A stretch of 64,000 nucleotides of DNA. It comes from an uncultured delta proteobacterium. GTDB taxonomy: Bacteria; Desulfobacterota; Syntrophobacteria; Syntrophobacterales; Syntrophobacteraceae. The stretch covers positions 32,001-96,000 of the forward strand of contig CAWEHK010000008.1 in the NCBI GenBank assembly GCA_963808625.1, in the 5' to 3' direction. Every line of letters begins with the position of its first letter. The first letter of the stretch is position 1. Positions 22,743 through 28,865 of this stretch are shown here, in pieces. The position numbers were made by a program, and so were the translations under genes. The notes beneath the pieces are model-generated. The model worked only from the letters and a program-made list of their open reading frames with translations. It was not told the origin of the DNA and ran no database searches.

Positions 22743-22895
22743 ATGACCTTATCTAAGAAGGTGTTCATCAGTTACGACAAGGCGGATACTACGTTCGCTC
22801 ATCATTTATCTGAAGATCTAAAGCGTTTAGACGTGGAAGTCTGGATTGCCCCTGAAAGTATTCTGCCCGGCGAAGCTTGGGTCGATGCGATCAAC
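22743..22895 (+). pseudogene. TIR-domain membrane protein, 5' part (interrupted by mobile element)
   Basis: AGGAGG RBS; MTLSKKVFISYDKAD..FA..L..DL....VW.....I.PGE.W.DAIN is a TIR_2 N-terminus. Confidence 0.85.
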
Positions 22896-23269
22896 GTATT
22901 AAGAATTTCGGTGTGGCGCGGGCAAGACGGAGAACTCTCATAGCAGTGCGGACTGAGCCGCCACACAATTCTGGGTTGAACTAAGCCGGGCGGGACATCT
23001 TATTTGGAGTTTGAATACCTGAGGTACCTGAAGGGGGAGTGTGTTTTGACCGGAGAGGGGGACAAAAAGGACAGGACGATGTGTGTGAGGGGGTGAAATG
23101 AGTGTGGTGCACCGAATTGGGACTCCCTTCTGAGGAGAAAAAGGCATCATTCATCTTTGCCTGAGTATTGTTGCCATGAGAACGGCGCAATCGTCCCTTG
23201 TAGCTAAAAGGAGTCTTTTTGCACCGCCCGTTCCTTGCTACTCAAGAAGAACCCCATCGAGAGCCGGTA

Positions 23270-24361
23270 TTATGGAGGCAATCGACCCATGGGTTTAAGA
23301 ACCTCAACATGTATCAGGATGGTCCCGCACTTGGGGCAACGCGGAGCATCCATTTGTTCTTTGGCATCTGAAGAATCTCCTTTTGTCTTGGCTTCAGTCG
23401 GGCCCGCGGCGAGCAGTTCTTTTACCCTTCTTAGCAAATGGCGATTGCCGGGAGCCAAGAAACCATAATACCTGACCTTGATGAATCGATCCGGCAAGAT
23501 GTGGCATAAAAACCTGCGGATAAACTCCTCGGCACTGATCGTACAAAGCTTGATCCGGCCGGTGTCCGGCTCCTTGTACTCGAAAGTGACCCTGCCGTCT
23601 TCCAGTTTGCGGATGCGATTGTTCGTGATGGCTACGCGAAAGATGTAGGGAGCGAGATACTGGAAGGCTTCCTCTCCAGACCCCACAGGCTCACAGTCAA
23701 CCACCCATTCCTTTTTCCACGCGCCGGGATCGATTTCGAGGAAGAGATCGGTTTGTTTAAGCTCATCTCGGAACTTGGCTCTAAAAAGCATGGCGAGTGG
23801 CTTGGTGTGAAAAAGGAAGTCCTTGCGTGATGAAAGCCACTTACTGCCATCGCATGACATGCCTCCTCCGGGAACGAGGTAGTGAATGTGGGGATGATAC
23901 CAAATGTCCCGTGTCCAGGTCTGGAGGACACCCACCATGCCGATGAGTCCTCCGATGAATCTGGGATCTTTTGCAATCTGCTGCATGGCTTCCGCCGAGG
24001 TACGAAAGAGGATATTGTAGAGGAGCTTCTGGTGCCGGCGCACCAGGTTCCGGAATTCCTCGGGAAGAGTGAATGTCACCATGAAATAGGTGATGGGGAG
24101 CAGCAAATGCTTTTGGCTCTCCAGCCACACTCGTGCCTGATCGTTCTGACATTTGGGGCAGTGCCTGTTCTTGCAGGAGTGGTAGCTGTAGCGGTGTTCG
24201 GCGCATGTCTCGCAATAGTAGACATGGCCCCCCATGGCCTCGGTTCGGCATTGCTCGATGTCGTCCATGGCCTCAAGATGGCTCGGGAGCATTCGATGGG
24301 AGAACTTTTCCCGGTACTCAGGTCCATGAAGGCGGAAGATATCCGCTACTTCCGCTTTCAC
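23270..24361 (-). CDS. IS91-family (Y2 HUH) transposase
   Basis: Zn domain CRT..C..C..HSCKNRHCPKC, FMVTFTLP, HUH HPHIH, YLAPY (YxxxY), VRYYGFL. Confidence 0.93.
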   Translation of the reverse strand: MKAEVADIFRLHGPEYREKFSHRMLPSHLEAMDDIEQCRTEAMGGHVYYCETCAEHRYSYHSCKNRHCPKCQNDQARVWLESQKHLLLPITYFMVTFTLPEEFRNLVRRHQKLLYNILFRTSAEAMQQIAKDPRFIGGLIGMVGVLQTWTRDIWYHPHIHYLVPGGGMSCDGSKWLSSRKDFLFHTKPLAMLFRAKFRDELKQTDLFLEIDPGAWKKEWVVDCEPVGSGEEAFQYLAPYIFRVAITNNRIRKLEDGRVTFEYKEPDTGRIKLCTISAEEFIRRFLCHILPDRFIKVRYYGFLAPGNRHLLRRVKELLAAGPTEAKTKGDSSDAKEQMDAPRCPKCGTILIHVEVLKPMGRLPP

Positions 24362-25224
24362 AGATCACCCATGATTTGATTGATGGCCTCAACTGCAATG
24401 CTTTCGGCTCGCACGGTCAAGTGGGTGTAGATGGCCGTGGTGGTTGGGGAATCGTGCCCCAGATACTCCTGGATGAGACGAAGGTTGACTCCGGCTTCGA
24501 GCAAATGAGTAGCCCACGAGTGGCGAAGCGTATGCACACTGGCCAGCTTATTGACCCCGCTCTCCTTGAGAGCTTCCTTGAAGGTGATCTGTACACTGCT
24601 CTTTGGCATGGACTCGGTTGCTCCGGGCATGTGGATGCCGCCGCGACCCGGTGCGGGGAAGATAAGGTTGGGATTGCGATGAGTGGCCCAGTAGCGTCGC
24701 AGGATCTCAAGAGTGGTCTTGGGCAGGGGGACATAGCGATCCTTGGCGCCTTTGCCATGGCGTACATGAATGAGCATCCTTGAGCTATCGATATCGGTAA
24801 CCCGAAGGTGTGTGCCCTCCTGTAGGCGCAGTCCGCATGAGTAGATGGTGGTGAGGCATGCTCGATAGCGGTCCAATCGGATGCAGTTCAAGATCTTTCG
24901 GACCTCTTCGATGCTCAGGACGACGGGAAGCTTTTTCTCTCGGGGAGGCCGGACGAAGGTGAGGGTGCTCCAGTCACGTTTTAAGGTGTGCCGGAAGAAG
25001 AACTTGATCCCGCAAAGAGCAATGGTGCTGGCAGTTCTGGAAAACTTTTTGACGTTCTTGAGATAAAGAAAATACTGGCGAAGCTCTTCATCTGTGACTT
25101 GATCGGGAGATTTGTGATAGTGTTCGGAAAGCTTGCGCACTGCCCTGACGTACATTTTCTGAGTTGTGTCAGACATGCCCCTGAGTTGAAGATCCTCGAT
25201 CATTCTCTTTCTGAGCTCAGTCAT
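24358..25224 (-). CDS. Tyrosine recombinase/integrase with N-terminal SAM-like domain
   Basis: YSCGLRLQE, GKGAKDR, HTLRHSWATHLLEAG, LGH, TTAIYTH; stop overlaps the transposase start. Confidence 0.93.
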   Translation of the reverse strand: MTELRKRMIEDLQLRGMSDTTQKMYVRAVRKLSEHYHKSPDQVTDEELRQYFLYLKNVKKFSRTASTIALCGIKFFFRHTLKRDWSTLTFVRPPREKKLPVVLSIEEVRKILNCIRLDRYRACLTTIYSCGLRLQEGTHLRVTDIDSSRMLIHVRHGKGAKDRYVPLPKTTLEILRRYWATHRNPNLIFPAPGRGGIHMPGATESMPKSSVQITFKEALKESGVNKLASVHTLRHSWATHLLEAGVNLRLIQEYLGHDSPTTTAIYTHLTVRAESIAVEAINQIMGDL

Positions 25225-25353
25225 GGCTATACCTCCTTGGAGTTTGGGTGAAGGGTTGACACTCCAAGTATAGGCATGCTGGACTCTTCAGAGAATTGTC
25301 GGGATTCACTCGGGGGCTGGCAGTGCGGCACTGCGCGTAGCGCTTAGTTCAAC

Positions 25354-26256
25354 CGAGGGTTGGAGCGGAGTACCCACGTGATTACGGTGCTTACACCGTC
25401 GGCACTAGAATCAGAGTGGGTGAGAATGGAGACAAACGTGGCAATCGCCTTAGAACGAAAAGGGAAACTACAGGTAATCCCTCTCGATGTCATGTCTTGT
25501 GATCCGCCCTCTCTTTGGACAAGCTATCAAACGATTTCTTTCCAGTCCAATTATAAGGAGGGTCTCAGCAAGCTTGCCGATATTTTGGAAATCCGCGCTA
25601 CACCTCCCCAAATAGCCGGTGTATTGAAATCTGGTGCGATTTCAGACCTCAGGGCGGTAACCGTTCTGGAGCCTGAAGGAAACCTAGCGGCAGAAGTGAT
25701 GGACCTATCATCCGAGTTGCAGCGGGAATCAAGTCAAGGAGACCGGACCACACCTGAACTGCCACAAGTGATGAACCAAGAGCGGCCTTCCATCAAGACC
25801 AAAATCACCTTGAAGCATTGGGTAGCTATTTTGGGCCTGATCGTGGCCATCTTTGCGCTTCCATGGATTTGGGAGAAGTTGACCTCCAACCCGCCTCCCC
25901 TGCCAGCAAGTGAGACCGTAAAGGAGTTGACCCCCACCCCGCCTCCCCCGCCACCACGTGAGACCGTAACTGTATACCCGCAAATCGGGCAGGATAAAGA
26001 TAGAGGTCAATATACTTCCATCAAGAACACTTTAGCCAAGTCTCGATTCACGGTGATGCCACTGGAGGTTTTGAACCGCAGAATCAGTCGTAGTGAAATT
26101 CGGTATTGCAATCCAAGCAATACTGAAGATGCCACCGCACTAAAGAGTCTCCTTGAGTCAAAAGGCTTTGGCGAACTTGGCCTAGTGAATATCAGCGATT
26201 GCGACGCCAAAGCGAATCGAAACATCCTTGAGCTCTGGGTTCAATCCAGCAATTGA
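25354..26256 (+). pseudogene. TIR-domain membrane protein, 3' part (rest of TIR, TM, Pro-rich linker, LytR_C-like domain)
   Basis: LERSTHVITVLTPSALESEWVRME, TM WVAILGLIVAIFALPWIW, PPPPPP linker, SEIRY....DATALK. Confidence 0.8.
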
Positions 26257-26483: not shown

Positions 26484-26942
26484 AAGCTAGGTGTCCTATG
26501 TCCCAGGAAAACCGTTCAGGATAAAGGGCTTTTTTGACTTTAGAAGTGCATTTTTGATGGGGAAATTGACCGTTTAAGGCAAAGAGTAATAGGATATGGC
26601 AAGAGCCAAACGGTATTTCCTGTCTGGATATGCGTGACATCTAACTCATCGGCGTCACAAGAAGGAATTTCTCCTCAAGTTCGCAAGGCGCAAGGGGCCG
26701 CAGGCGATGGTTCCACTGGCGGTTCGAGGCAAAGAAACGTTATGGTCTGCGGGTTCTGAACTACATGGTCATATCCAAATAGATCCATGCTACGGAGATT
26801 GACTATGAACGACAACCCGAACGGAGACACATCCCACGAAATCACTTAGCATCATTACCAAAGAAGGCTACTCGCGCGCTGCCATGGAAGACGATGTGCA
26901 TGGAAAAGCAAAGGAATGTCGTGTGTCTGCAGTAGGCGTGCC
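26484..26942 (+). repeat. ~460-bp direct repeat copy 1 (RAYT 5' end plus start of the GH75-like gene)
   Basis: Aligns along its length with 27623-28082. Confidence 0.9.
26596..26790 (+). pseudogene. REP-associated tyrosine transposase (RAYT/Y1) remnant 1
   Basis: MARAKRYFLSGYA*HLTHRRHKKEFLLKFA...FEAKKRYGLRVLNYMV. Confidence 0.7.
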
Positions 26943-26961
26943 TGGCGAGCAGGGTCGGGCC

Positions 26962-27622
26962 GTAAGCGCCGGGATAAACCGGCATAGAGTAGGGGATGAA
27001 AGAGCCCCACATGAAAGGAGGAGCTGCTCCATCGTGGCCCCGAGTCATGTGCGGGTAGCCGTGAGGTTACACGTGATGCAGTTGACAGGGGAAAACGCAG
27101 GCCAGCCATTGAGCTCCGAAATCACCCATCCGGGATGCCGACCTTGTGGTCCGAGGGGGAAGGCAATACTGGATGAGGGCGTTAGACAGCGAGCCCTCGC
27201 CAGGTCCCGCGGAGTCTAAGACCCTGTGCATGCGTGGACAGTCTATGCTCGAGAACCGGGAGATCTCCATAGCCTCTGGGGGCATCATCGCAGAGCGGTC
27301 GGGGAAGGCCTGTGGCCATAAGCCCGATGTGAACGCTATGGAGAAGTCAGACATCGGCGTAGTACCGAAGAAGGAGCCGAACAACGCACAGTGGCGGCGG
27401 AGGCTCTGGAGGGAAGGCCGGTGACCGAGGGGAATTCTGTAAAGCCCGACTGGGACCTGCACACAGTGGCAGGAGTAAACATTGATCGGACTTGACAGAA
27501 TACGTGAAACAGCAGAAATCAGCGACTTTGCGTCATTAACCCAAGGTAGGAGCCGTATGAGATAATTCCTCACGTACGGATCTGTGCGGGGGGTGCCGGG
27601 CGACCGGCATTCCTACCGCGAT
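26962..27622 (+). ncRNA. Group II intron with reverse-transcriptase ORF deleted
   Basis: Domain V GAGCCGTATGAG..CTCACGTACGGATC; domain VI ending CCTACCGCGAT (AY); 5' GTAAGCGCCGGG; EBS1 GGTCCGA (27148-27154) pairs with IBS1 TCGGGCC (26955-26961). Confidence 0.9.
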
Positions 27623-28082
27623 AAGCCAAGTGTTCCATGTCTCAGGAAAACCTTTCAGGATAGAGGGCTTTTTTGATCTTAGGAGTGCATTTTTGATGGA
27701 GAAATTGACCGTTTAAGGCAAAGGAGTAAAGGGATACGGCGAGAGCCAAACAGCAGTCTTTATCCGGCTATGCGTGACATCTAACTCATCGGTGTCACAA
27801 GAAGGAATTTCTCCTCAAGTTCGCATGGCGCAGGGGGCCGCAGGCGATGGCTCCACTGGCGGTTCGAGGCAAAGAAACATTATGGTCTGCGGGTTCTGAA
27901 CTACATGGTCATATCCAAGTACATCCATGCTACAGAGATTGACTATGAACGACAACCCGAACGGAGACACATGCCATGAAATCACTTGGCATCGTTACCA
28001 AAGAAGGCTACTCGCGCGCTGTTATGGAAAACGATGTGCATGGAAAACCAATGGAATATCGTGCACTTGTAGTAGGCGTGCC
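27623..28082 (+). repeat. ~460-bp direct repeat copy 2 containing RAYT remnant 2
   Basis: Homologous to 26484-26942; RAYT start codon changed to ACG at 27736; same premature TGA. Confidence 0.9.
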
Positions 28083-28176
28083 AGTCTTGAGAGTACAAGA
28101 CCACAGGTGACAGCGATAGGAAACCTTGACCATCTTGGATGACTTGGGTGAGGTTATCAGAAGGAACGGATAAACC

Positions 28177-28410
28177 GTGAAATTTGAACTCATCAGCCAA
28201 ATCGAAGGGATCGAGGTCATCGCGGTCGGGACCAGCATCCGCAATTTGGCTTATCTTGAAAAGATTTATGGCTCGGGGCGATGGAGAAAGCTCAAGGGCA
28301 GAGCTCATGCCCGACTCCCCAATGGAAACATCAGGTGGGTTGAGTTACCCTGGTACGAAGCTCATGGGATTGGCCGTAAAGATATAAAAATTAAGCGTTA
28401 TATGGAATGA
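28177..28410 (+). CDS. Small basic hypothetical protein (putative toxin)
   Basis: 77 aa, GRWRKLKG, WYEAHGIG; first gene of a tight two-gene pair. Confidence 0.7.
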   Translation: MKFELISQIEGIEVIAVGTSIRNLAYLEKIYGSGRWRKLKGRAHARLPNGNIRWVELPWYEAHGIGRKDIKIKRYME

Positions 28411-28414
28411 GACA

Positions 28415-28654
28415 ATGATTAAGCACAAAACACATTTTGCCATCTGCGTTGATAATACCGACTACGAAGCTTCTCTGGTCTTGAGAAAGATCTATGAGAT
28501 CATTCCGGATGAGGCGGCTGCCAGGGACGATCTCTTAAGAATTGTGGATGAGAGCGGGGAGGACTACCTCTATCACAGGAGCCAGTTCGTGGTGGTGGAG
28601 TTTCCAGTAGAAGTGGAGCATGCATTGCTCGCTGCGCAGGGTATGACAGCGTAG
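28415..28654 (+). CDS. Small acidic hypothetical protein (putative antitoxin)
   Basis: 79 aa, FAICVDN.DY.ASL..RKIY, RIVDESGEDYLY; 4 bp after its partner. Confidence 0.7.
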   Translation: MIKHKTHFAICVDNTDYEASLVLRKIYEIIPDEAAARDDLLRIVDESGEDYLYHRSQFVVVEFPVEVEHALLAAQGMTA

Positions 28655-28657
28655 CGG

Positions 28658-28865
28658 TAACTCATCGCTGTCACAAGAAGGAATTTCTCCTCAAGTTCGC
28701 AAGCGACCGCGGGCGATGCCTCCGCTGGCTGTTCGAAGCAAAAAAACGATATGGACAGCGTGTTCTGAGTTACATGGGCGCATCCAACCACATCCATTTG
28801 GAGCACAAGTGGAGTGAGAGCATTGCCGTAGGAAGCAGCAATTTTGTCGAAAGGATGAAGGGTGG
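28658..28865 (+). pseudogene. RAYT remnant 3 (internally deleted)
   Basis: THRCHKKEFLLKFASDR..WLFEAKKRYG..SNHIHL (HUH) joined to C-terminal WSESIAVGSSNFVE. Confidence 0.75.

Follow-up and report, generated by a model that had tools for sequence, protein, structure and literature searches.

The locus described here raises the question of what a tyrosine recombinase does in an insertion sequence that also encodes a rolling-circle transposase. The window, a stretch of 64,000 nucleotides (nt) of contig CAWEHK010000008.1 (positions 32,001 to 96,000; GenBank assembly GCA_963808625.1) from an uncultured delta proteobacterium of the Syntrophobacteraceae, contains at positions 22896-25353 an insertion of 2458 bp that splits a gene for a TIR-domain protein. 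By membership tests this element belongs to the IS91 family, in the subgroup that carries an upstream integrase gene, and is neither an integron nor the bearer of an integron integrase. Both its ends and its landing sites resemble those of integron gene cassettes, and this suggests a use for the additional recombinase. The reading developed below, to which a probability of about 0.5 is assigned, is of an insertion sequence with two enzymes that mimics an integron gene cassette and is able to move by itself: the transposase would copy the element out as a circle of single-stranded DNA, and the recombinase would insert the folded junction of that circle.

The borders of the element are marked first by the gene that it interrupts. 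The 5' part of that gene (22752-22895, plus strand, 48 codons) matches positions 1-44 of the Pfam TIR_2 profile and the 3' part (25354-26256, plus strand) matches positions 46-121, so that the break falls at profile position 44/46. The original prediction had fixed the junctions from the TIR reading frame restored by deletion of the insert, and this is now backed by an empty site: in a public wetland metagenome run (X2), a contig of 296 nt passes directly from 22890 to 25349 and so lacks exactly 2458 nt, the 5 nt at the joint fitting either side. These 5 nt are the TCAAC (GTTGA on the coding strand of the element) that adjoins the end downstream of the transposase at 22891-22895, and that recurs at 25349-25353 as the last 5 nt of the element; as had also been claimed, there is no longer duplication. 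Because its flanks are ~94% identical to the window, the X2 contig represents a never-occupied allele in a relative and not an excision product. The extent of the whole element (22896-25353, minus strand, as are all of its parts given below) is drawn from this contig, from the Pfam matches and from the occurrence of the same element elsewhere. A copy with 99% transposase identity, likewise of 2458 bp, lies at another site (L091), and altogether four different flanks are found for the same element, in the window, at L091 and in contigs of metagenome runs X1 and X2, with AAC (GTT on the coding strand) always adjoining the hairpin-bearing end. On account of these four flanks, this element is judged to be recently active.

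The element carries two genes. The upstream one (24358-25224) encodes a tyrosine recombinase of 288 amino acids, and its stop overlaps by 4 nt the start of the downstream one (23270-24361), which encodes a Y2 HUH transposase of 363 amino acids. The transposase matches the IS91-family model NF033538 at 388.4 bits, against a cut-off of 125, and has the Pfam domains Y2_Tnp (PF04986) and Zn_Tnp_IS91 (PF14319); at least 98% of 92 sequences keep its zinc-site cysteines, H156 and Y235/Y239. The recombinase has the Pfam domains Phage_integrase and SAM_4, and the residues that mark it as a tyrosine recombinase, R133, K158, H231, R234, H257 and Y266, are at least 98% conserved among 69 sequences. Since the catalytic residues are kept to this extent, both enzymes probably cut DNA. 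Integron integrases are the best family match of the recombinase (TIGR02249, 196.2 bits), and the closest solved structure is that of VchIntIA (2A3V, E 1.5e-35). Chain residues 207-243 of 2A3V fall in the gap between two aligned stretches, so that the IntI-specific extra segment of the catalytic domain is missing; the caveat first attached to this protein, that it lacks the I2 insertion of IntI, is thereby borne out. A survey tree of tyrosine recombinases (10.1101/542381) likewise places IS91-borne recombinases in an integron-like subgroup without the IntI insertion. The two genes occur together almost throughout: of the 36 loci that include upstream DNA, 35 have a recombinase match immediately before the transposase gene.

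The relatives considered comprise 35 loci from species genomes and 80 from metagenomes, together with two from genomes of the same family and three from named plasmids (Herpetosiphon, Clostridium and Bradyrhizobium). Their transposases are 37% to 99% identical to that of the window, and the elements measure 2385-2491 bp. All readable elements share one layout, which in coding orientation runs: flank, GTTGAACTAAGC, a small palindrome, the recombinase gene, the transposase gene, ~240-310 nt, GCTTAGTTCAAC, 1-3 nt, a hairpin, TTAAT(n)C, and GTT with the following flank. The ends are fixed by two near-identical copies in one genome (L057 and L058, 99.96% identical), whose homology extends from GTTGAAC to ...CTC-GTT; both copies have TTG before GTTGAAC, and only GTT is common to both junctions. 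A second pair, L068 and L069, was dropped as independent evidence for the ends, as it represents one insertion in two related genomes. No other full-length copy was found in the window's own genome (G000), only a recombinase pseudogene on its contig C24 and a decayed relative on C41 (L006, 1-2540), whose transposase is 40-50% identical and whose genes are both frameshifted. The end boxes of this decayed relative are the same as those of the window element, and its hairpin sequence is wholly different.

The end downstream of the transposase (the ori side) had been predicted to fold into an imperfect hairpin, and such a structure is present as described at 22902-22972. An outer stem pairs AGAATT (22902-22907) with AATTCT (22967-22972); a TCG bulge follows (22908-22910); and an inner stem pairs GTGTGGCG (22911-22918) with CGCCACAC (22959-22966), closing on a loop that varies among relatives from 4 to ~60 nt. 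Extra stem bases are usual, one in most elements and three in the window copy. Between the hairpin and the end of the element lies an unpaired spacer, TAATAC on the coding strand (22896-22901), which answers to the conserved TTAAT(n)C of the relatives. The folding energy of the hairpin is no better than that of shuffled sequences (z -0.58 and -0.39), so the case for it rests on covariation. In an alignment of 28 related right ends the eight-pair inner stem is 91% paired, seven of the eight pairs change on both sides, and the covariation score is 0.301, against 0.164 for shuffled alignments (0 of 500 shuffles reach the observed value) and at most 0.157 when the partners are slid. A covariance model built from this alignment (R1) recovers the complete module, beyond the end of the transposase gene, at 59 of the 80 loci from metagenomes; in three more it is truncated at a contig end, and in one it is inverted. 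The sole match of the model in the window is at 22893-22988; the fitted alignment of the matches is 93% paired, a figure that leans towards the model by construction. The hairpin is conserved in relatives from many phyla, with an inner stem that covaries, as the original prediction would have it. A second, small palindrome (GCGC, 3 nt, GCGC; 25333-25343), which differs in sequence yet still pairs in relatives, adjoins the box at the opposite (ter-side) end, giving the element the subterminal palindromes at both ends that are expected of the IS91 family.

The two ends are also complementary to one another. Next to the hairpin stands an internal box, GCTTAGTTCAAC on the coding strand (22975-22986), which may be called R''-like or a guide box, and which is at 12 of 12 positions the exact reverse complement of the R'-like terminal box GTTGAACTAAGC at the ter-side end (25342-25353). 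This complementarity, noticed at the outset in the window alone, is found at 10-14 of 14 positions in 19 of the 20 relatives with both ends readable. Both boxes change together in three elements (at position 8) and in two (at position 1), and about 12 mismatches are left uncompensated. The consensus words of integron attC sites are RYYYAAC for R'' and GTTRRRY for R'; the boxes GTTCAAC and GTTGAAC of the present element fit these forms respectively, and would pair in a circle. In two IS91 elements without an integrase, one of 1539 bp and the other the canonical IS91 of an E. coli plasmid, the longest end-to-end matches are only 6 and 8 nt, and a complementarity of 12-14 nt accordingly looks less ordinary for the family. 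The 1539-bp element is present in the window's genome in five 99.7%-identical copies, all without a recombinase (on C29, C45, C3, C17 and C39; L007-L011); it has CTTG or CTCG before the end upstream of its transposase, with variable bases at the other end, so that its conserved tetranucleotide lies on the opposite side from that of the element studied here.

The same boxes can be accommodated in ordinary IS91 rolling-circle transposition, which is rather unlikely to account for the element as a whole. The Y2 transposase would make its nicks after AAC, both at the hairpin end and at the opposite one, and would carry out all cutting and joining, while the internal box, which reads GTTGAACTAAGC on the non-coding strand, would be a guide that pairs both with the far end, over 12 nt, and with the target (T)CAAC. 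The recombinase would be an accessory, helping for example to terminate at the far end, which is the part played by Orf121 in IS91, or to resolve tandem copies. That box and far end change together agrees with such a guide, and a 2026 account of the IS91 family (PMC13181058) lists much of what is seen here: the absence of target duplication, with a target tetranucleotide (CTTG, GTTC or GTCC) adjoining oriIS; an oriIS with one or two subterminal palindromes; a terIS whose one palindrome adjoins the tetranucleotide that is cleaved, GTTC in both IS801 and IS1294; circles, single- as well as double-stranded, in which the ends are joined; and, in IS91 itself, an upstream gene (that of Orf121) in the same place as the recombinase gene, which overlaps the transposase start and aids recognition of terIS. 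Because they are stated there for the family, the common TCAAC core, the lack of duplication, the hairpin end and its completion in the circle are to be counted as family traits. This explanation is harder to reconcile with the two integrase-less elements, in which no such complementarity of the ends is seen, and with the retention of all six catalytic residues in 69 recombinase sequences, for which an accessory binding protein would have no need.

The sites at which the relatives are inserted follow a rule that goes beyond the original prediction: they lie at the GTT of attC-type sites, in one orientation. Among 65 unique right flanks, the sequence after the element is GTTAGGC-like (G in 59, T in 61, T in 64, A in 41, G in 41, G or A in 53, and C in 43), and 46 unique left flanks read TCCGSTSCAAY at positions -16 to -6, so that each relative sits at one GTT beside a motif made up of TCCGSTSCAAY, 4-5 nt, and the GTTAGGC-like sequence. 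Folding of the rebuilt empty sites places the left motif, in many loci, on the 3' side of a hairpin. At 17 of 35 sites an upstream partner pairs with 12 or more of the 16 motif positions, compared with 61 of 400 GTT sites taken as controls from the same loci (Fisher p 1.3e-5). In four loci (L092, L101, L113 and L155) pairing with an upstream box of GCCTAAC type extends over the whole of GTTAGGC or GTTCGGC (7 nt), giving the order box-stem-loop-stem-box as in an integron attC, and the element is inserted at GTT in the box on the 3' side. The motif recurs intact, in the same orientation, ~1 kb downstream in L101 and ~0.55 kb downstream in L139, and in L101 a match to group II intron D1-D4-7 (405-556, 115 bits) lies ~0.8 kb from the element, which itself occupies an attC-like site; these downstream copies and the intron fit a cassette array. 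The attC-like targets became evident only after the metagenome set had been added and the sites folded. A search of the first set (28 right and 22 left flanks) for an exact complement of the first seven flank bases gave no match, and a scan of 14 loci against Rfam, which has no attC family, returned only the group II intron and chance microRNA matches. No description of the target rule or of the end architecture was found in the literature searched, which did not extend to subscription journals or to TnPedia.

In the window the target flank, CTCCGCTCCAAC followed by CCTCG on the coding strand of the element (25354-25372), matches the left motif of the relatives, and the complete site, CTCCGCTCCAAC-CCTCG-GTT, matches the motif fully. 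The pattern TCCGSTSCAAY-N4-5-GTTRRRY occurs only once in the 4.8-Mb, 85%-complete assembly, at this very site, and therefore the element seems to have taken the one look-alike available. No attI, promoter platform or integron was found beside the window copy. A short way beyond the TIR gene, on its downstream side, the region 26484-28700 contains direct repeats of ~400 nt at a spacing of 1140 nt (26484-26880 and 27623-28020, with a third, partial copy from ~28650) and a match to group II intron D1-D4 at 26999-27224; it looks like several copies of a group II intron. In a Chloroflexota subgroup (L053, L071, L073, L056, L154 and L163), the 13-34 nt to the left of GTTGAAC are alike and of GTATAATTAATA type, which represents either another preferred target or a further extension of the element to the left.

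These flanks bear differently on the alternatives. Known IS91 members require only a tetranucleotide, whereas here some 11 additional conserved bases, 4-5 nt away from GTT, match attC sites, and this is difficult to explain if the transposase does all of the work. In favour of the transposase acting by itself, a short stem (at least 4 bp, with a loop of 3-6 nt) in which AAC pairs with GTT, cut exactly at the 5' edge of the GTT arm, occurs in the smaller genome set at 5 of 18 sites, against 2.7% of 636 background sites (P ~9e-5). The insertion of elements at a specific site and in a specific orientation, beside a conserved motif and with a common GTT core, could also be expected if the recombinase alone excised and integrated a double-stranded circle, in the manner of a small integrative element, with the HUH protein merely replicating or amplifying that circle; the joined ends, CTTAAT-ACGTTGA-ACTAAG, offer a possible core with inverted arms, and the recombinase is catalytically intact. 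This is nevertheless improbable. Relatives differ by one base in the distance from CTTA to GTT, neither the 12-nt internal box nor the covarying hairpin would be given a role, the transposase bears all the IS91 hallmarks and is always present and conserved, and the empty site in the relative of the window, as noted above, reflects an allele that was never occupied and not the outcome of excision.

Some elements adjoin one another head to tail, as cassettes do in their arrays. A partial copy in L059 stands directly against a full one to which it is 97% identical, L119 has two different elements side by side, and a junction of this kind is also seen in L159; in all three, a single GTT lies between the right end of one element and the left end of the next. 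Units consisting of the hairpin alone form tandem repeats in L029, L054, L072 and L137. Solo copies of the hairpin end, 75 nt in length and 95% alike, occur in the window's genome (L003 1498-1572, on C39) and in that of a congener (L037 1501-1575, on C34 of G002). They have unrelated flanks, start after CAAC or TAAT and both stop at CACACAAT, and may be mini-products of early termination; since they look like early stops at a look-alike of the far-end site, they count in favour of a transposase that acts as in IS91. In L115 (3490-3620) two diverged elements stand tail to tail with one hairpin common to both, the second being inverted at the internal box of the first.

The preferred reading, of a cassette mimic with two enzymes, would run as follows. 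The HUH transposase would nick the non-coding strand after AAC at the hairpin end, and a single-stranded circle would be rolled off by it, as in IS91. In the circle, the terminal 12 nt would pair with the internal box, lengthening the hairpin into an attC-like fold, and the IntI-like recombinase would then carry out strand exchange at GTT, either in an attC site or in a sequence resembling one, which in the present case would be the CTCCGCTCCAAC-CCTCG-GTT inside the TIR gene. The strand that nicking of the IS91 type would displace is the same as that used in integron recombination. Once joined, the ends would read, in coding orientation, GTTCAAC box, hairpin, short unpaired spacer and GTTGAAC, an order that is complete only after joining. 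A bolder form of the proposal, which is advanced tentatively, is that the element is a self-mobile integron cassette, whose transposase makes the single-stranded circle for which other cassettes rely on the host or on excision, and whose own IntI-like recombinase pastes the folded circle into attC sites and their look-alikes. Such elements would form a living link from rolling-circle transposons to integrons, and would be parasites of cassette arrays with the capacity to strike ordinary genes as well.

Several observations weigh against a division of labour of this kind. The recombinase falls below the cut-offs for integron integrases (TIGR02249, 196.2 against 265 bits; NF011946, 134.4 against 435), and the segment missing from it is the one that holds the flipped-out attC bases in VchIntIA. 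The window target has no attC hairpin partner, with two of 16 motif positions paired, and among the relatives 18 of 35 sites fall below the hairpin threshold, by a measure of folding that is crude and that 15% of the controls pass. One Chloroflexota subgroup has a perfect stem without a bulge; the integrase-less controls for the complementary ends are two elements only; and the junction bases form a mixed picture in those elements that begin with A or T. Since GTT is common to both junctions, the cut point is not readable from the sequence: cleavage before GTT, of the HUH type, and G|TT, of the integrase type, give the same product. The circle junction that the original prediction led one to look for was not seen in contigs of metagenome runs X1, X2, X5 and X6, although contigs drop rare forms. 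Finally, according to PMC13181058, the IS91 family by itself explains the common tetranucleotide, the lack of duplication, the palindromes and the circles. The idea of a cassette-like folded site has thus survived in part. It has gained from the cassette order of the joined ends, from the IntI-like nature of the recombinase and from the relatives found at the GTT of attC-like sites, and it can no longer draw on the common core, the absence of duplication, the palindromes or the joined circles, which are standard for IS91.

With a target rule and cassette-like joined ends in hand, the role of the recombinase in integrase-bearing IS91 elements becomes directly testable. If the proposed division of labour is true, the element would be a transposon that couples rolling-circle copying to single-strand site-specific recombination, and would represent a new class of invader of integron arrays, with a bearing on the origin of integron integrases. 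For annotation, it accounts for interruptions of 2.4-2.5 kb in cassette arrays and occasionally in genes such as this TIR gene of defence type.

The element may be compared with several known systems. Like IS91, IS801 and IS1294, it has a Y2 HUH transposase with a zinc-binding N-terminus, makes no target duplication and has palindromes at both ends. It shares with the family a tetranucleotide of GTTN type beside the end downstream of the transposase, with the same one at the other end, and with IS91 itself an upstream gene whose stop overlaps the transposase start. It departs from the family in having an IntI-like tyrosine recombinase where IS91 has Orf121 or other members have nothing, and in a target that is an attC-type motif and not a bare tetranucleotide; the box of 12-14 nt beside the hairpin, complementary to the far end, sets it apart from both canonical IS91 and the 1539-bp element. 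ISfinder lists IS91 members with an upstream integrase gene (for example ISAzo26 and ISShvi3), which have the same gene pair; no paper describing the ends, fold or target rule of these members was found within the coverage already stated, subscription journals and TnPedia lying outside it. Elements of the IS200/IS605 family such as IS608 also work on single-stranded DNA with subterminal hairpins, and their cleavage and target sites are read by pairing with a short guide beside the hairpin. These elements differ in their Y1 enzyme, in a guide of 4 nt that uses non-canonical pairs, in having no recombinase, and in proceeding by excision rather than rolling-circle copying.

Homing to attC is itself not without parallel. 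The IS1111-attC group of the IS110 family and the class C-attC group II introns home to the attC sites of cassette arrays, according to PMC9229058. The element described here resembles them in this, and in L101 its relative shares an array with a group II intron; they differ from it in their unrelated enzymes and insertion points and in showing no mimicry of a cassette. In architecture the element resembles integron cassettes, with an R''-type box GTTCAAC, a stem that in most elements has an extra base, a spacer and an R'-type box GTTGAAC, all downstream of the genes. Integration splits the R' box at GTT, and only circularisation would make it whole; about half of the relatives assessed are joined at GTT in attC-like hairpins, and some form head-to-tail arrays. 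The recombinase, too, is the nearest relative of IntI, albeit one without the IntI insertion and below the IntI cut-off. The spacer is of 2 nt in one and 6 nt in the other, and, unlike an integron cassette, the element brings with it both its own recombinase and a transposase of the replication type.

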